Made by a program: the position numbers and the translations under genes. 31,542 nucleotides of DNA from a virus (lineage: Duplodnaviria; Heunggongvirae; Uroviricota; Caudoviricetes), in the IMG/VR virus record IMGVR_UViG_2711768060_000013, positions 1 through 31,542 of that record. One strand, given 5' to 3'. The notes beneath the pieces are model-generated. The model was not told the origin of the DNA. It made no database searches and saw only the letters and a list, made by a program, of their open reading frames with translations. Every line of letters starts with the position of its first letter. Within the stretch, counting starts at the first letter, position 1. Below, one piece after another: positions 7,534 through 27,703 of the stretch.

Positions 7534-8807
7534 CAGTCGGTAATCTCCACAGGTTGCGTTGGCAGTATGAATGACGGATGGCGCAGGCGGTTACGCTGCA
7601 CGATTTCATCCCGTCGGCTTGTGTCACCATGTTCGCGCCATGCCAGCAATGCGGCAGATGTGGTTGTGGTCAGCGTCACCTGCCGGGTTTCCGGCAGACG
7701 GGCGGCACGCTCGCGGGCATCCGTAATCACGGCCTGCCGTAAATCGCGCAGCGTTCGCCACAATGCCCGCTGGTTATTTTCCACCGCCGCCACCGCCTGC
7801 TCATGCAGTTCAGCCGCCAGCGTGTCACCGGCAGATAATGCCGCATCACTGGTATCGAACGTCATCGAGGCCACGGCATTTGCCTGTCCCAGCAGGGTTT
7901 CCAGCACAACCACCTGGCGGAAGTCGTCAATGTTCTTCTGCAGGCTGTCAGACACCGGCTGATAATCCGGTGACAGCCCGATGGCAAAGCCAATTTCGCC
8001 GTCTGCCACGCTGCCTGGCTTCACGGTGATATCTTCCGGCAGTGCGCCGGTGGCAACCTGTCGGGCGCGTTCTCCGGCCCACTGGTTGCGTAATGTCGTG
8101 TAAACCGCCAGTGCTTCGGGTGGTTCCGTCACCAGATCAACCACGCCGTCGATGAACGAGGACAACTCACTGACCAGACGTCCCGGCGTGGCAATAATGG
8201 TTCCGACCATCTCCTTAAAATGGTTCAGCCTGTCCATCCACTGATTCAGTGCTGCCGGTAGCGTGGGCAGGTTAGCCACAAAGTTTTCCATATCGGACAG
8301 AAAGCTGTCGGCCATCTCACCCAGCCCGTCAAGTGCGCCGAACCAGTCGCCACCGTCAATGGCCGCTTTTACCGCATCAATACCCGTCAGCACTTCCTGC
8401 TGCGTGTTATCCGCCGCAGACGGGAACAGGCGCTCGCCTGCCTCAAACACTTCAAAGGTGACATACGCAATGCCGTCTTCCTCCGTGCTGAGGCGATGGG
8501 TGACCTTGCCAACCTGTACGGTCTGTATCCCGAACCACGGGTGAATAAGCTCGCCGGGGCCGGGGGTATTAAGCGCGTCTAAAAGGGCGTTTAAATCAGC
8601 CTGGAAGTTTTTACCTGGCAGCTTTGCGTTAATCTGCTGTTGCCCCGGAACGGCCCCGTTATCATCCGTCCAGGCGGTTTCGCGCCGGGGATACGCACGG
8701 GGAATGGCACGACGGCCACCGGTGCCTTCCGTATCCACCAGAAAGAAGGGGACGCCACGAAACGAGGCGTCGCGCAGCCCGTCCCATTTGCCTTTGCTTG
8801 TTGTCAT
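7533..8807 (-). CDS. N: DNA circularisation protein N-like (Mu gp43)
   Basis: ORF track, 424 aa, N-terminus MTTSKGKWDGLRDASFRGVPFF recognised as this family; immediately follows the tape measure gene. Confidence 0.8.
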   Translation of the reverse strand: MTTSKGKWDGLRDASFRGVPFFLVDTEGTGGRRAIPRAYPRRETAWTDDNGAVPGQQQINAKLPGKNFQADLNALLDALNTPGPGELIHPWFGIQTVQVGKVTHRLSTEEDGIAYVTFEVFEAGERLFPSAADNTQQEVLTGIDAVKAAIDGGDWFGALDGLGEMADSFLSDMENFVANLPTLPAALNQWMDRLNHFKEMVGTIIATPGRLVSELSSFIDGVVDLVTEPPEALAVYTTLRNQWAGERARQVATGALPEDITVKPGSVADGEIGFAIGLSPDYQPVSDSLQKNIDDFRQVVVLETLLGQANAVASMTFDTSDAALSAGDTLAAELHEQAVAAVENNQRALWRTLRDLRQAVITDARERAARLPETRQVTLTTTTSAALLAWREHGDTSRRDEIVQRNRLRHPSFILPTQPVEITD

Positions 8808-22948: not shown

Positions 22949-23553
22949 TTCGGCCCCGCAGACATTTTGTGACGGCTTGATTTGCTGTAACGGGCAAAAC
23001 CGTCAAGGGTTCTTACGCCGAGATAGCCCAGCGCCGGGGTAAGCAACATCAGCGTGATATCCCAGTCCGGTGACGGCATATGCAGCGAGATACCTTTGGC
23101 ACCGGCAATGGCTCCGGCAATCTGACCGCAGGAGAGCAACAGCACATAGGCCAGACTGCTGTAACAGGAAAGGCGGGCCAGCAGCGGGCGCGTCTGGCGC
23201 ACATAGCTGTCCGTGGCGTTGTCACCATTGCGGATGGTTTCCTGCTGTTCGTGGTGTGCGGCCTGCTGGTCAGCCAGCACCAGCTTCTGCCGTTCCACCT
23301 CCAGCTGTTGCAGCTGAATTTTCAGAGTTTCCAGCTGCATCAGTTGCTCCGGTGACAACATCACCAGCTTTTGTTCCAGAATGCGTTGCTGTTCAGCCAC
23401 CGGCAGGCTTTCCCGGACGCTTTCCACCATACCGGCCACCGAGTCAGCGGCGGCAGATGTGCTACCACCAAACCAGCGCCCGACGGAACGAATCAGCCCC
23501 GGCCCGGCTTTCAGCAGAACAGAGGCGATGCCTGAAAGGGTTAACGGATCCAC
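22945..23553 (-). CDS. putative holin-like membrane protein (N-terminal coiled coil, C-terminal TM segments)
   Basis: ORF track frame; start moved to GTG at 23551-23553 with a perfect GGAGG 7 nt upstream, which removes the 162-nt overlap with the upstream gene. Confidence 0.5.
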   Translation of the reverse strand: MDPLTLSGIASVLLKAGPGLIRSVGRWFGGSTSAAADSVAGMVESVRESLPVAEQQRILEQKLVMLSPEQLMQLETLKIQLQQLEVERQKLVLADQQAAHHEQQETIRNGDNATDSYVRQTRPLLARLSCYSSLAYVLLLSCGQIAGAIAGAKGISLHMPSPDWDITLMLLTPALGYLGVRTLDGFARYSKSSRHKMSAGPK

Positions 23554-23966
23554 GGGAAACCTCCATACAGATAACGCTGAAAACAGAGCAGACCGCCGCA
23601 ACTGCCACCACACAGCCAGAACACCGGATGCACCGGTGACATCATCATCAGCGTGCTGAAGACGCAGCAGAAATATCCCAGCGCCCAGACCACCCATGAC
23701 CACACGATGATGTGGCGACCAAAAGCCCGGTAACGGACCTCAGGCAGCAGGCGAAATGGCACATTCCCGAGGCTTGCGCTGTATGAAAACAACACCACCC
23801 CGGCAAAGGACAACAACATCAACACGAACGATCGCCAGCCACATAACATGCTGATGATGAACATGCAGAGTGTCAGTCCGGCCAGTGGCCATGGCGTTCT
23901 CATCAGTCGGGAACAAATCAGCCAGTCACACAGTTTTAAAATTTTGTTCATTACCTTTTTCCACAT
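23541..23966 (-). CDS. multi-pass membrane protein, Cys-rich; possible lysis-associated protein
   Basis: ORF track frame; start moved to ATG at 23964-23966 (MWKKVMNKIL...); hydrophobic segments throughout. Confidence 0.45.
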   Translation of the reverse strand: MWKKVMNKILKLCDWLICSRLMRTPWPLAGLTLCMFIISMLCGWRSFVLMLLSFAGVVLFSYSASLGNVPFRLLPEVRYRAFGRHIIVWSWVVWALGYFCCVFSTLMMMSPVHPVFWLCGGSCGGLLCFQRYLYGGFPWIR

Positions 23967-24177
23967 TGAATTTTTCCCTGTACTTCTGGCACTGCCAGAA
24001 AATGTCCCGTGTATCCACGGAGTTCCAGCCACGCATGTAGTAGCTGGCGTGTGTGCCGTCATGGCCGGTGTAGTCCACCGGTTTCGGGGGCGGACCTCCG
24101 GCCATGCGGTGTAAAACCTCCTGGCGCAGGCGGTCACGCCGCCCGGCTTTCAGTGAGGCGTCCCAGCCTTTGCCCAT
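23926..24177 (-). CDS. hypothetical protein (83 aa) immediately after the endolysin
   Basis: ORF track; ATG directly downstream of a G8 tract; in the -1 frame relative to the endolysin. Confidence 0.45.
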   Translation of the reverse strand: MGKGWDASLKAGRRDRLRQEVLHRMAGGPPPKPVDYTGHDGTHASYYMRGWNSVDTRDIFWQCQKYREKFNVEKGNEQNFKTV

Positions 24178-24767
24178 ATCCCCCCCCGCGTGGTGGACGG
24201 CGCGTTGTCGATAATTTCCAGACAGGCGTCGGTCAGTTTTTCCATGCGGTTAAACCAGCCGTTCAGGTATTTACCCTGGGCGGGTTTTGACTTGATGATG
24301 TCGGCATAAAAGCGGGAACGACGGACAATGCAGCGGGTCAGCAACCAGTCCGGGGTGGACAGGCTCACGGCCTTACGGGTACACGGGCCGATGATGCCGT
24401 CAGCATCCACATCAGCGGCTTCCTGCAAAATTCTGATGGCTTTTTTAACGCCATGCTGAACCGCCGCATCGAACACAAACATCGCCACGCCATCAGGCCA
24501 CTGGTCACATCCGGCAGGCAGCCAGTAATCACGCAGGTAAATCTGTGCGGCCTGTTCGCGGGTTAAATCTTTGATGCGGGTATCCGGTTTACCGTCACCG
24601 TTGACATCGGTTTTGCCGTCAATCACACCGTCGCGGCGGTCAGAAATGCCGTATTTGGTTTCGCCGCCACGGTCAGTGGGGTCATTGACATAGACGCCTT
24701 CGATATCAGGACGCAGAATGAAATTCAGCGCATGTTCAAAGGCCGGGGAGAATTTTTGATTTTCCAT
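24150..24767 (-). CDS. endolysin, GH108-type N-terminal domain plus PG_binding_3-like domain; no SAR/TM segment
   Basis: ORF track, 205 aa; EGVYVNDPTDRGGETKYGI motif typical of GH108; AGGTG 6 nt upstream of the ATG. Confidence 0.8.
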   Translation of the reverse strand: MENQKFSPAFEHALNFILRPDIEGVYVNDPTDRGGETKYGISDRRDGVIDGKTDVNGDGKPDTRIKDLTREQAAQIYLRDYWLPAGCDQWPDGVAMFVFDAAVQHGVKKAIRILQEAADVDADGIIGPCTRKAVSLSTPDWLLTRCIVRRSRFYADIIKSKPAQGKYLNGWFNRMEKLTDACLEIIDNAPSTTRGGIWAKAGTPH

Positions 24768-24822
24768 AAAAGCACCTGTGAAGCAGATTTAAACGTGGTC
24801 TGCTTCATGGTGCCGGAGGCAT

Positions 24823-24848
24823 AAAAAAAGCCGGATTTACCGGCTTCA
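24823..24848 (-). terminator. intrinsic terminator 8 nt downstream of the mor stop (AAGCCGG-TAAAT-CCGGCTT then T7 on the minus strand); same element as 17047-17072
   Basis: hairpin and U-run read directly from sequence. Confidence 0.6.
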
Positions 24849-24852
24849 TTGA

Positions 24853-25302
24853 TTAAAGGCGTCGTGGCGGACGACGAACGGGGTGAGGCAGGTTCGGGGA
24901 GGGGTAAAACAAATCCGGCTGGTATTTATTACGCTCCAGACGTCGCATCCGTTTGATGGCCTTGTAGACGGTTTTATACGTCACTCCGTAACGCTGAACC
25001 AGTTCAGGAATATTATGGCCGTTAAAATCACGCCAGATACGCATATCCCGGACAAGATTCTCCAGAATATTCCCCCTCGGAACATAAACCTGCATCCCGC
25101 CGATATGGCGACAAATCGCCACAACCAGCTCAAGGGAATGAACAGGGTCTGCGCCAATCCGGGCCAGCTCTTTACGCAGCAGTGCGTTCAGTTCAGAAAG
25201 TAACGCCGGATAAGCGGTGTTTTCCTGGTAATCATGAAGATATTCCAGAACGCTGTCGTCCCGGAGGTCTTCGAATAAATCCTGCTCTTTCATCTGTTTC
25301 AT
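24853..25302 (-). CDS. mor: Mor/C-family transcriptional activator (Mor-like, 149 aa)
   Basis: ORF track; sequence recognised as Mor-like (DLF.DL.DD..L..L......PALL.EL..LLR.EL...G.DP.HSLE.VVAIC.H.GG.QVY.PRG...L.RD.RIW.DFNG.N..EL...YGVT..TVYKAI.RMRRL); follows gemA. Confidence 0.85.
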   Translation of the reverse strand: MKQMKEQDLFEDLRDDSVLEYLHDYQENTAYPALLSELNALLRKELARIGADPVHSLELVVAICRHIGGMQVYVPRGNILENLVRDMRIWRDFNGHNIPELVQRYGVTYKTVYKAIKRMRRLERNKYQPDLFYPSPNLPHPVRRPPRRL

Positions 25303-25847
25303 ACAGCAATTCTCCCGCTGTTTCGTGCGCGGGCATACGCACTGGTCAGTGCATCATAGCCGCGCAGTTCCCGCCCGGATGGGCTTACAGGTAAAGGCAC
25401 ACCATGTCGGGCAAAGGCTTCACGGATGCAGCGCATGTGCCACTGTTTGAGCGTTTCGAGCACAACCTGCAACGATTCCCCGTGACACCAGGCCAGTGTG
25501 GAAACACCCTGACCGCCATTACGTCTGGCCGTCAGGCGCTCAACGTATTTGTCCAGCGCGGCGTCGCTGATATCGGAAACGAAACCATCAAGGAACATCT
25601 GCTGCCAGATTTTGTAAATCTTCTCGCGTGGTGTGACATGCCCCTTAAAGCGACGGCGGGGATGTTTTTTCTGCTTCTTAAAACCGCGCTCTTTCATGGC
25701 ATCGAGCACACGTTCCAGTTGTGCAACGGACAGCTCGCGGCAACTGGTCTTGCCCGTGCACTGCACCAGAAAGGCGCGGTAAGTGTCATCGTCGAGTTGT
25801 AGATCACGACGAGCGACATGAATTAATTTAATAAGCGATGCGCGCAT
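25299..25847 (-). CDS. gemA: GemA-like protein (Mu gp16 family, DUF1018)
   Basis: ORF track; start moved to ATG at 25845-25847 (MRASLIKLIHVARR...) with GGAGA 8 nt upstream; recognised family. Confidence 0.8.
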   Translation of the reverse strand: MRASLIKLIHVARRDLQLDDDTYRAFLVQCTGKTSCRELSVAQLERVLDAMKERGFKKQKKHPRRRFKGHVTPREKIYKIWQQMFLDGFVSDISDAALDKYVERLTARRNGGQGVSTLAWCHGESLQVVLETLKQWHMRCIREAFARHGVPLPVSPSGRELRGYDALTSAYARARNSGRIAV

Positions 25848-25913
25848 GATGCGTATCTCCATTAAAGCGGTGTTGCAGCACCGCCATTACGTTAAACAAA
25901 AGGAATTACTGAA

Positions 25914-26156
25914 ATGTCTGAATCCACCAAAGATAAAAATTATGACTTTGCAGCATTTTCTCTTGCTGGTAATACCCTCATAAAACTCGTTGAAAAGGGC
26001 GTCATTGATATTCGCGATGCCAAAGATGTTATTGACCGAACACGGGCAACCAACAAATTCGGCAGTTCGCTCAAGTGCGATGTCATTGGCTCTCCTGCTG
26101 AGGACTGTATAGATTCTCTTTTTCTGAAACTTTGGGATTCAAAACCGTTGAAATAA
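25914..26156 (+). CDS. opposite-strand small ORF (80 aa) inside the early region; possible moron
   Basis: ORF track; ATG with AAGGA 9 nt upstream; sits in a gap with no minus-strand ORF; AT-rich by eye; 3' end overlaps the minus-strand ORF 26083-26448 by 74 nt. Confidence 0.35.
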   Translation: MSESTKDKNYDFAAFSLAGNTLIKLVEKGVIDIRDAKDVIDRTRATNKFGSSLKCDVIGSPAEDCIDSLFLKLWDSKPLK

Positions 26157-26448
26157 ACAAACAACGCTCATAATCAGCCGTTCTTATAATGGCTAAACCG
26201 TCTACACCAAGCTCACGGCGAACTAATTCGTCATGGGCTTTTTTTTCAAGAAACACAAATTCAGTTTGTAATAATGACAACTCTCGTTTGATAACACTCA
26301 TAATTTCTCCCACCCCCCATTGCTCCTCGATTGCTTTGAACACAATCTCACGCATTCTTAGGGGGACACCCTTTTGCTGACAAAAATCGTCAAATGTCAT
26401 GCCGAAATAATATTCATGATTTTTTTTATTTGTTGTCGTCTTACTCAT
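26083..26448 (-). CDS. hypothetical early protein (121 aa)
   Basis: ORF track; ATGAGTAA start/stop overlap with the upstream gene. Confidence 0.55.
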   Translation of the reverse strand: MSKTTTNKKNHEYYFGMTFDDFCQQKGVPLRMREIVFKAIEEQWGVGEIMSVIKRELSLLQTEFVFLEKKAHDELVRRELGVDGLAIIRTADYERCLFISTVLNPKVSEKENLYSPQQESQ

Positions 26449-26626
26449 TTCTTAATACCTCTTCACAATAAAAGATTTCACCGGGATAACGTTTTTGTAT
26501 GCGCTCCATCACCTGCATACATGCCTGCTCTGTGGGCCAGATTTTTTCCGTTACGGGTATGGCATCGCAGGCATCATTCCCGCAGGTGCTAACCAGCAGG
26601 ACAAAGCCAATTGACTTAATCACCAT
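26441..26626 (-). CDS. small Cys-containing protein with signal-peptide/lipobox-like N-terminus (MVIKSIGFVLLVSTC...)
   Basis: ORF track, 61 aa; hydrophobic N-terminus ending VSTC. Confidence 0.5.
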   Translation of the reverse strand: MVIKSIGFVLLVSTCGNDACDAIPVTEKIWPTEQACMQVMERIQKRYPGEIFYCEEVLRNE

Positions 26627-26852
26627 TCATCTCCATCTGTTCCAGGCGCTGTGCTTCGCGCATACACAGCTGCGCAATCATCATCTGGCGGGTAATGCCT
26701 GCACGAATAAACGAAGCTGCACGACGGAGATTTTTTGCATTCGCCTGTTGAATCAATGCAGGCACTGATGCCAGACATTCTGCGCTGTCTTTAATCAGCG
26801 TTGCAGCTGTTATTTCCGGTGCTTGTTGCTTATTCCTCGTCATCTTCGTCAT
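26616..26852 (-). CDS. hypothetical early protein (78 aa)
   Basis: ORF track, same strand, short overlaps with neighbours. Confidence 0.45.
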   Translation of the reverse strand: MTKMTRNKQQAPEITAATLIKDSAECLASVPALIQQANAKNLRRAASFIRAGITRQMMIAQLCMREAQRLEQMEMNGD

Positions 26853-27084
26853 CCTTTACATTCAGCGTTACAGGAAATTTTTCGAACATGAAAAGGGCAA
26901 GCCTTGCCCCAAGTCTCAGAAGGTTTGCTTCCTTTGAATGTGCAGGGATAACGCATTTCTCACCGTCATTGTCGAAGGTAATATCCGCATCTTTTTTATC
27001 GATAAAAAAACGACATTCCTCCACGCGTGCTTTATGCCATGCACATAAAGAGACAATGCATTCTTTCATTTCCTGATTCGTCAT
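26830..27084 (-). CDS. hypothetical acidic early protein (about 84 aa)
   Basis: ORF track frame; start moved to ATG at 27082-27084 (MTNQEMKEC...) with GGTGA upstream. Confidence 0.5.
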   Translation of the reverse strand: MTNQEMKECIVSLCAWHKARVEECRFFIDKKDADITFDNDGEKCVIPAHSKEANLLRLGARLALFMFEKFPVTLNVKDDEDDEE

Positions 27085-27178
27085 AAATATCACCATTTCA
27101 GATTTAGGCGCGAGCAATCCCCTGACGCATCGCGCCATAATTAAAAGAAAGTGAATTAATTAAATATTCGTAGTGGTA

Positions 27179-27703
27179 TTAAATACCGGCTTCCTGTTCA
27201 AACGGAATAATAGAAAAATCTTCAATGCCCGATTTAACTGTAATTCCGGCAACACCTGCGACCGCTTTCGGTTCCAGTAAAATCGCTTCCCTGTTGATTT
27301 CCTGTTTCGTGCGAATAAAACGTTGCAGGCCAAGACGCTCCAGCGTTTCCATCACCGCATCCACACCGCGAATACTTACCGATGGTGGGCGCTGACGCCA
27401 TGACACATCGCCGGTTACCAGGTTCGCCGTCTTCACCTTGCCGCCGTTCGTCAGTTCGTCGCGGTTCGCTTCACACCATCCCTGTACGCCTTTTGAAAGG
27501 GTTTCAATACTGGTTTTAAGGGGCGCAATCTGTGAGGCGTATTTCTCAGTAATTTCAGCGATAGCGTCATTCATTTCCGTTTCAAGTCGTGCCGCTTCGC
27601 GTTGCAGGTCACCAATCCGGCGAATATCACACACCACGGCATCGCGGGATTGAGGAACATAAGCTGCTGCGGCACTCTTGATTCGTTTTGCTGGTTTAGC
27701 CAT
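27179..27703 (-). CDS. gam: host-nuclease inhibitor protein Gam (Mu Gam family)
   Basis: ORF track, 174 aa, recognised Mu Gam sequence. Confidence 0.9.
   Translation of the reverse strand: MAKPAKRIKSAAAAYVPQSRDAVVCDIRRIGDLQREAARLETEMNDAIAEITEKYASQIAPLKTSIETLSKGVQGWCEANRDELTNGGKVKTANLVTGDVSWRQRPPSVSIRGVDAVMETLERLGLQRFIRTKQEINREAILLEPKAVAGVAGITVKSGIEDFSIIPFEQEAGI

Follow-up and report, generated by a model that had tools for sequence, protein, structure and literature searches.

Between gene 14 and gemA, bacteriophage Mu carries a small, uncharacterised gene that is oriented against the early operon. This gene 15 (Mup15, NP_050619.1; NC_000929 7896-8162, complement; phrog_8747) encodes a protein of 88 amino acids (aa) and overlaps by 62 nucleotides (nt) the 3' end of gene 14 (Mup14, NP_050618.1; phrog_6075), the last early gene before it. 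A hairpin of the form GGCGGTG-N6-CACCGCC lies between the ribosome-binding sites of gemA and gene 15, and a T-tailed hairpin follows gene 15 on its own strand. A search for literature on Mu gp15, its expression or leftward transcription in the Mu early region found nothing, and the annotation of the slot in this model phage is in conflict: NC_000929 has gp15 in reverse orientation, whereas the current GenBank record, AF083977.1, whose update is acknowledged in PMC9239132, has a forward-strand ORF, Mu_54 (7960-8127), instead. Here the same arrangement is described in IMG/VR virus record IMGVR_UViG_2711768060_000013, the 31,542 nt of which are referred to throughout as the window. The subject is an AT-rich island at window positions 25870-26460, in which a plus-strand open reading frame (ORF) of 80 aa converges on a 121-aa ORF of the minus-strand early operon; the two are called the gp15-like and the gp14-like gene below.

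The slot is occupied in phage D108 by a 119-aa ORF (NC_013594 ~7857-8216, complement; a hypothetical protein in Mu_3F6, LR595867) that shares orientation and hairpin with the window gene and overlaps gene 14 by 53 nt. The RefSeq record of D108 leaves a 376-bp gap unannotated although this ORF of gp15 type is intact, and at positions 2726-2991 of a further locus, L002 from E. coli 06-00048 (NZ_CP015229), PGAP has annotated nothing despite an intact ORF of the same type. Morons, such as HK97 gp15 and lambda bor and lom, are autonomous promoter-gene-terminator units expressed from prophages. The island resembles them in its distinct composition, its accessory nature, its own terminator-like signal and an orientation independent of the operon, and it differs from them in that no promoter was found, in that the gene is always paired with an overlapping operon-strand gene, and in its descent from an old Mu-like lineage. 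In the Mu-like Pseudomonas phage Fc02, the pair olg1/gene 10 consists of an opposite-strand gene overlapping a gene of the early operon; lysogens transcribe the opposite-strand unit, induction switches it off, and superinfection exclusion is conferred by both genes (PMC9936078). The Fc02 pair lies in the immunity region by ner and not upstream of gemA, and its overlap is extensive instead of being limited to the 3' ends; its logic matches the expression logic considered below by analogy only.

The island is best explained as the gene 14/gene 15 cassette of a Mu-like (Muvirus-type) prophage, a reading that we hold, its inferred parts on expression included, with a probability of about 0.72. What the window contributes is no new insertion: Mu gp15 and its partner gp14 are a known, if uncharacterised, kind, and the pair found here is a new, divergent member of it. 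In that sense the finding is an ordinary one, Mu having this hypothetical gene already in its annotation and the window a divergent copy of it, and it overturns no expectation. What goes beyond existing annotation is the case for gp15 over Mu_54, the co-inheritance of genes 14 and 15, a putative one-way terminator embedded in gene 14 and a 5' hairpin specific to the cassette.

In the window, a Mu-like prophage, the early operon runs on the minus strand. The cassette belongs to the accessory portion of the early region, with gemA on one side and gam on the other. The GC content of the island is 39.4%, against 54.5% for the whole window; just 0.19% of all segments of 591 nt are equally low in GC, every one of them overlaps positions 25870-26460, and the island is the lowest-GC stretch of its length in the sliding profile. 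The preliminary description of this DNA had reported the AT-rich island, the 80-aa ORF with AAGGA 9 nt before its ATG and the convergent overlap of 74 nt with the minus-strand ORF, and all three are borne out. It had also called this ORF the only plausible plus-strand gene, which is reasonable: among the plus-strand ORFs of at least 50 aa it is the one that lies least under long minus-strand ORFs (0.30). Its statement that no minus-strand ORF exists at this place has to be corrected, since a TTG-initiated ORF of 74 aa (25940-26164) lies antisense to the plus-strand gene.

The gp15-like gene occupies 25914..26156 on the plus strand and starts with an ATG; its Shine-Dalgarno sequence lies at 25900..25904. 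We regard it as protein-coding, its translation being read from purifying selection, the lack of stops and the conserved start and Shine-Dalgarno sequence. Selection was assessed with seven homologues from diverged phages, whose GemA is 44-50% identical to that of the window. Substitutions cluster at the third codon positions of the plus frame (25, 18 and 52 at positions 1, 2 and 3 between the window and locus L009), and the ratio of nonsynonymous to synonymous substitution rates (dN/dS) is 0.07-0.18 in six of the seven pairs with an estimable dS and 0.31 for the window against L014. The plus frame has the lowest ratio of nonsynonymous to synonymous differences (pN/pS) of all six frames in eight of eight pairs, and not a single stop interrupts it in any lineage. 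The start ATG is conserved, and AAGGA, GGAG or GAGG precedes the aligned start in every lineage. The identical protein has been called as a gene on at least 103 contigs. The earlier claim that the early operon contains a genuine gene on the opposite strand stands, the gene being conserved in diverged phages, and identity and coding status together form the most secure part of the explanation, one that we consider very probable.

The opposite view would be that the plus-strand ORF is no gene, and that the true coding sequence lies on the early strand as Mu_54, with the plus-strand ORF as its antisense shadow. AF083977.1 speaks for it, having Mu_54 where RefSeq has Mup15, and the 74-aa early-strand ORF of the window lies in the frame equivalent to Mu_54. 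Because the early-strand frame and the plus-strand ORF have their third codon positions in common, the pN/pS of the former is nearly as low (0.27-0.65; in one pair 0.24 for sense and 0.27 for antisense), and the lack of a detectable promoter for the plus-strand ORF points the same way. The sense frame and the antisense frame with aligned third positions are separated by stops, start signals and the orientation of the terminator-like signal. In-frame stops interrupt the 74-aa antisense frame in most relatives: the best antisense frame has them in five of six lineages, and the Mu_54-equivalent frame in the window, L011, L012, L014 and L026. Early-strand ORFs moreover vary between lineages in start, length and frame, whereas translations of the plus frame form one coherent family in which residues are conserved, and the terminator-like signal, with its compensatory changes and G.U pairs, belongs to the strand of the plus-strand ORF. 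The comparative evidence favours gp15 over Mu_54; we read the 74-aa ORF as a shadow ORF and consider the converse very improbable indeed.

That the plus-strand ORF belongs to the Mu gp15 family, as a divergent member, follows from profile matches and from a PHROG family common to both. When phage genomes were searched with it by tblastn, D108 and Mu_3F6 proved to have an ORF of 36% identity, opposite the early operon in the slot between gene 14 and gemA; for D108 this identity extends over 74 residues (E 7e-15). Homologues in matching slot and orientation occur in D108 and in nine IMG/VR viral contigs with GemA only 44-50% identical to that of the window, and such a recurrence in diverged phages, at equal place and in equal orientation, is far beyond chance. 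A gp15-type gene is also present in Mu-like prophages of Klebsiella, Salmonella and E. coli. The ORF matches phrog_38610 (1.8e-10) and phrog_32893 (2.1e-9), both families of unknown function, and phrog_32893 is matched by Mu gp15 as well. A profile of the window/D108 type finds the Mu gp15 sequence (75%, E 2.5e-5), and profile-profile comparison of this type with the Mu and L054 types gives a probability of 95.7% (E 9.1e-9) over the N-terminal 48 columns. The common core consists of two N-terminal helices with the pattern [FY]D.A.[FY]....(..)..L[VI].[KN]..I...[DE][AG]..I. Identity between the window protein and Mu gp15 is ~19% in a local alignment and 23% in a multiple alignment, and the C-terminal halves are unrelated.

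The family comprises at least three subfamilies, the window/D108 type, the Mu type and the L054 type, with pairwise identities of 8-25%, and these keep slot, 5' hairpin and gene 14 partner alike. The window protein groups with those of D108 and of the Klebsiella and Salmonella prophages, apart from Mu gp15; the D108 protein differs from it in an acidic N-terminal extension of 27 residues and a longer C-terminus, and the D108 gene 14 subtype is closest to that of L054. The family is small: among 1.84 billion proteins it forms nine clusters at 50% identity, that of the query included, and a profile search returned 21 clusters, of which the named ones are all 'hypothetical' and come from Klebsiella/Raoultella, E. 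coli/Escherichia or Salmonella. A word-indexed protein search with the plus-strand ORF returned the identical cluster only, and a scan of genome contigs confirmed at least one locus. The family consists of small helical proteins that were found in Mu-like phages of Enterobacteriaceae only. Several of its members in the databases are truncated or frameshifted past the conserved N-terminal 43-58 residues (P0005-P0008, P0022, P0023); a 43-aa version translated from L015 3001-3132 stops at the residue where cluster P0022 (43 aa, 64 contigs) stops. Function may need no more than the two N-terminal helices, or else the gene decays frequently.

Searches for a function of the two products were negative in Pfam and NCBIfam, where neither the plus-strand nor the minus-strand protein has a significant match, and in PADLOC, where no family was found for either protein, for Mu gp14 and gp15 or for the alternative cassette of the slot described below. 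Sequence searches of the PDB gave unusable results, the best hits being a CLOCK-interacting peptide (E 0.026) and SRA1 (E 1.2). An AlphaFold2 model of the gp15-like protein (predicted local distance difference test, pLDDT, 70) is a three-helix bundle with generic structural neighbours only, and the single-sequence AlphaFold2 model of the gp14-like protein is unusable, with a pLDDT of only 52. A helix-turn-helix reading of the LVEKGVID motif in the gp15-like protein was rejected on the grounds of the acidic second helix and the modelled topology.

The gp14-like early gene (26083..26448, minus strand) is a homologue of Mu early gene 14 and, as in Mu, no other early gene stands between it and the opposite-strand gene. 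Its residues 17-98 match phrog_6075 at 1.2e-14, the family that Mu gp14 matches at 2.6e-54, and the motifs ..MLER....I......KA[HQR]....RR.LG.. are common to both proteins. Identity is 37% to D108 gp14 (E 9e-14) and ~23% to Mu gp14; a gp14 hidden Markov model (HMM) that has the minus-strand ORF among its seeds matches it at 4.7e-42. Compared with Mu gp14 the window protein carries a C-terminal tail that is longer by ~15-20 residues, and hence the overlap with the gp15-like gene reaches 74 nt (26083-26156, convergent 3' ends). Across nine lineages the 3' overlaps measure 74, 62, 53, 39, 36, 45, 71 and 39 nt, and 74 nt in L002, and according to the alignments they fall in the C-terminal tails of both proteins, which are variable in length. 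At its other end the gp14-like gene is joined to the upstream 61-aa ORF (26441-26626), the stop of which overlaps its ATG by 8 nt in ATGAGTAA; the junction is as first described, and this overlap makes translational coupling plausible.

Genes 14 and 15 are gained or lost together in the slot directly upstream of gemA. When HMMs of both were run over 68 fetched loci, a set with many near-duplicates in which ~9 diverged lineages carry the cassette, 42 loci had both genes and 26 had neither, with no exceptions. The identity matrices of the two proteins correlate (Mantel r 0.73, p 2e-4). D108 is a mosaic: its gp14 is close to the L054 type and its gp15 belongs to the window type, a combination that points to recombination inside the cassette. 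On the viral contig L064 (~1400-1500) the 5' hairpin and the first five codons of gp15 (MENNV) are kept and unrelated antisense sequence follows; this locus looks like a deletion remnant of the cassette.

Some 50-85 nt past the gp15 stop (~55-90 nt in the window) lies a second hairpin that looks like a one-way terminator. In the window its stem spans 26209-26240 and its T run extends to 26246, on the plus strand and thus in gp15 sense, inside the gp14 codons for ..EKKAHDELVRRELG... A stem-loop with a T-rich tail is present here in 11 of 11 lineages, encoded throughout by the gp14 codons ..KKA[HQR]....RR[EKR]LG.., and the segment folds at -8.3 to -22.3 kcal/mol. Covariation was tested on a gap-free, codon-anchored alignment of ten lineages, with a control in which the pairing partner was slid and with 500 shuffles: 92.5% of cells pair, compared with 34-48% in the control, five of the 12 pairs change on both sides, and none of the 500 shuffles reached the covariation score. 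Several pairs are G.U on the gp15-sense strand and C.A mismatches on the early strand, and the fold is more stable in gp15 sense in eight of the 11 lineages and slightly more stable on the early strand in the other three. In D108 and L014 an independent terminator scan calls the hairpin in gp15 sense, and the TransTermHP 'terminator' of Mu in gene 14 (7839-7873) is the same hairpin, with its T tail on the leftward strand. On the early strand the hairpin comes after a run of A and lacks a U tail, so early transcription should pass through to gemA and mor; the U tail belongs to the gp15 strand only, where the hairpin should therefore stop gp15-sense transcription. The cassette would thus be a compact example of how a gene can be set against a long operon without breaking it, by means of a direction-specific terminator inside a coding sequence.

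The preliminary description saw in the island a moron-like element and suggested an exclusion, toxin or anti-defence role. Taken strictly, this would make the gene a recent, autonomous lysogenic-conversion gene with gene 14 as a mere neighbour. Composition, opposite orientation and the terminator-like signal agree with such a view; the cassette is also present in some and absent from other close relatives, Mu-like prophages exist with an unrelated opposite-strand gene in the slot (phrog_585, weak DUF2513), and the window-type cassette was found whole in none of 5426 complete E. coli genomes. The gene family is nevertheless old in Mu-like phages, as its three divergent subfamilies attest, and no recent one-off; among the 68 loci neither gene of the pair ever occurs without the other; and the terminator is written into gene 14 itself. 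With neither a promoter nor a PADLOC match found, a classic moron is unlikely. What survives of the earlier description is an accessory cassette with a terminator-like signal on its own strand, while the proposed role has no direct support and the promoter expected of a moron was not found. Nor is the gene an oddity of this prophage: it is the counterpart of Mu gene 15, found also in D108 and in Mu-like prophages of Klebsiella, Salmonella and E. coli. The products, which had seemed unrecognisable, indeed match no characterised family, and both are relatives of known Mu genes, 14 and 15. The possibility had also been raised that the minus-strand ORF is a conserved Mu early gene with the plus-strand ORF absent from relatives; the former is such a gene (gene 14, phrog_6075), and the latter is present in relatives.

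The other border of the cassette is formed by gemA (25299-25847, minus strand; Pfam GemA 9.2e-33), which lies downstream on the early strand and head-to-head with the gp15-like gene. The longest gemA ORF begins at 25862 (MEIRIM...), but the ATG at 25847 has GGAG 9 nt upstream and aligns with the start in relatives (MSRTSLIKL / MRASLIKL), and identical loci have been called as 182 aa. Translation probably begins at 25847, with the first five codons of the longer ORF untranslated, and the spacer between gemA and the gp15-like gene is then 66 nt. Between the two ribosome-binding sites this spacer contains a GC-rich palindrome, aGCGGTG-TTGCAG-CACCGCc (25866..25885), the Mu counterpart of which is GGCGGTG-CTGCAA-CACCGCC. 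The hairpin is present in every cassette-bearing locus and in L064, which failed both gene profiles, and was not found in the other fetched loci. Of its cells 98.6% are paired; two of seven pairs show compensatory change, in one lineage only (GGCGGCT...AGCCGCC), and the folding energy is unexceptional in context (z -0.7 and -0.9). The hairpin would lie within the 5' leaders of both genes if their promoters are upstream of it. The idea that it is a site for a Mor- or C-type activator was rejected, as it differs from Mu Pm and is too near both start codons.

The loop TTGCAG in the window is the exact reverse complement of CTGCAA in Mu (L006 2693-2715), D108 and L009, as though it had been flipped between identical inverted arms; in L014 (2950-2969) the loop reads TTACAG. 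In L014 and L012 the hairpin is followed by ATATTTATTA, and the terminator scan calls the L014 hairpin terminator-like in gp15-sense direction, upstream of the gene. On the gemA side the first ~20 codons (window 25780-25845; also Mu, L009, L012 and L014) look unusually conserved as DNA, synonymous sites included. The window, Mu, D108, L009 and L011 share the stretch CGGTAAGTGTCATCGTC without a difference, L012 has a single mismatch just inside either end, and the GemA proteins of these phages are only ~48-50% identical overall. The conserved DNA could be an embedded signal, for example a promoter of the opposite-strand gene, or a joint at which cassettes are exchanged by recombination.

Several results weigh against the cassette reading. 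Neither the 260 nt upstream of gp15 in nine lineages nor window positions 23000-25950 yielded a sigma-70-like promoter; the promoter scans returned isolated matches only, which are not conserved among lineages, and the case that gp15 is transcribed comes entirely from selection on the protein and from the terminator-like signal. The conservation of that signal is in part a coding constraint, given its place in conserved codons of gene 14, and in three of 11 lineages the fold is slightly more stable on the early strand. Homology to Mu gp15 is seen at the profile level only, in the N-terminal 48 residues only, and direct BLASTP of the window protein against Mu gp15 gave no alignment. The redundancy of the 68 loci, the nearly equal pN/pS of the antisense frame and the Mu_54 annotation, given above, count on the same side. 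A non-consensus or activator-dependent promoter for gp15 may exist. It would have to lie in the 5' end of gemA, because the spacer of ~66 nt is partly filled by the hairpin. A CATGAT at the gemA start codon has key -10 positions and no -35 element, and is not claimed as a promoter. A search of Rfam with positions 25500-26800 gave no match.

The same geometry allows a different emphasis, in which the main product would be an RNA, a roadblock or antisense regulator that tunes early expression of gemA and mor and thereby times the middle and late phases, the ORF being secondary. The unit lies directly upstream of gemA and mor and faces the early promoter, its conserved hairpin adjoins the gemA Shine-Dalgarno site, and the Mu record annotates a separate 'semi-early promoter' just upstream of gemA. 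With a promoter inside gemA, the RNA would be antisense to the ribosome-binding site of gemA in its 5' leader and to gene 14 in its 3' part. Against this stand the purifying selection on the amino acids, the synonymous sites being saturated, the conserved start and Shine-Dalgarno sequence, and the lack of any known promoter for the RNA; furthermore, many close relatives without the cassette keep the gemA-mor arrangement, and the cassette is consequently not needed for timing. We consider an RNA as the main product distinctly unlikely.

Returning to the cassette reading, its parts on expression can be set out as follows. The gp15-like gene would form a separate transcription unit against the early operon, with a non-consensus promoter that lies within the 5' end of gemA or close to it; it would oppose early transcription, and gp14 would be its partner. 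Approximately 165 nt at the end of the gene 14 message would be complementary to the gp15 mRNA, and the region where gemA is initiated probably to the 5' end of that mRNA. Once induction has set off strong early transcription, collision and antisense pairing might then silence gp15, such that gp15 would be active mainly while the early promoter is quiet and gp14 while it is active. This expression logic is tentative, and we would sooner doubt it than rely on it. The strict co-inheritance suggests that gp14 and gp15 act on one target or on each other, as partners or as antagonists.

A second, unrelated cassette of like architecture recurs in the slot of other Mu-like prophages, at L027 796-1473 and also in L034, L044, L046, L047, L049, L050, L061-L063 and L067. 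There a 100-aa early-strand ORF (phrog_1988) converges with an overlap of 30 nt on an opposite-strand ORF of 134-138 aa (phrog_585; weak DUF2513, E 0.002) that lies head-to-head with gemA, 31 nt away from its start; ~30 nt past its stop follow a GC hairpin GGCGGC..GCCGCC and then TTTAT. In still other close relatives the slot holds same-strand ORFs only. This slot has the look of a hot spot where cargo on the opposite strand comes with a partner on the early strand. The recurrence of a second such cassette also prompts a bolder proposal, that Mu-like phages use this hot spot for 'toggle' cassettes, each made of an opposite-strand gene and an overlapping early partner. The opposite-strand gene, with its one-way terminator, would be active under repression of the early genes and the partner only after induction, with convergent transcription enforcing the switch. 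The gp15-like gene, like the phrog_585/DUF2513-like gene, would then be an exclusion or defence factor expressed in the lysogen, and gp14 (or the phrog_1988 product) an early antidote that spares the lytic growth of the phage itself. We hold this to be rather improbable; the pairing and the second cassette nonetheless suggest, in testable form, that transposable phages may carry gene pairs toggled between lysogeny and lysis.

The surroundings of the cassette are those of a Mu-like early region. Pfam identifies Mor (24853-25302) and Gam (27179-27703) on the early (minus) strand, downstream of mor lies a hairpin with a T run (24847-24827), as is the case in Mu, and a transposase gene starts at the right end of the window. 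The 61-aa early ORF that forms the upstream border (26441-26626, minus strand) matches phrog_16556 (5.4e-29) and, weakly, DUF1482; it is 93-97% identical in E. coli prophages without the window-type cassette. Between the cassette and gam (26616-27138) the window has ORFs of 78 aa (phrog_24376) and 102 aa (phrog_12368), and loci with identical gp15 and gp14 proteins have in their position a gene of 179-180 aa with a Gp11_C domain; the early region is mosaic on either side of the cassette. A second patch of low GC content (41.5%) lies at ~26730-27320.

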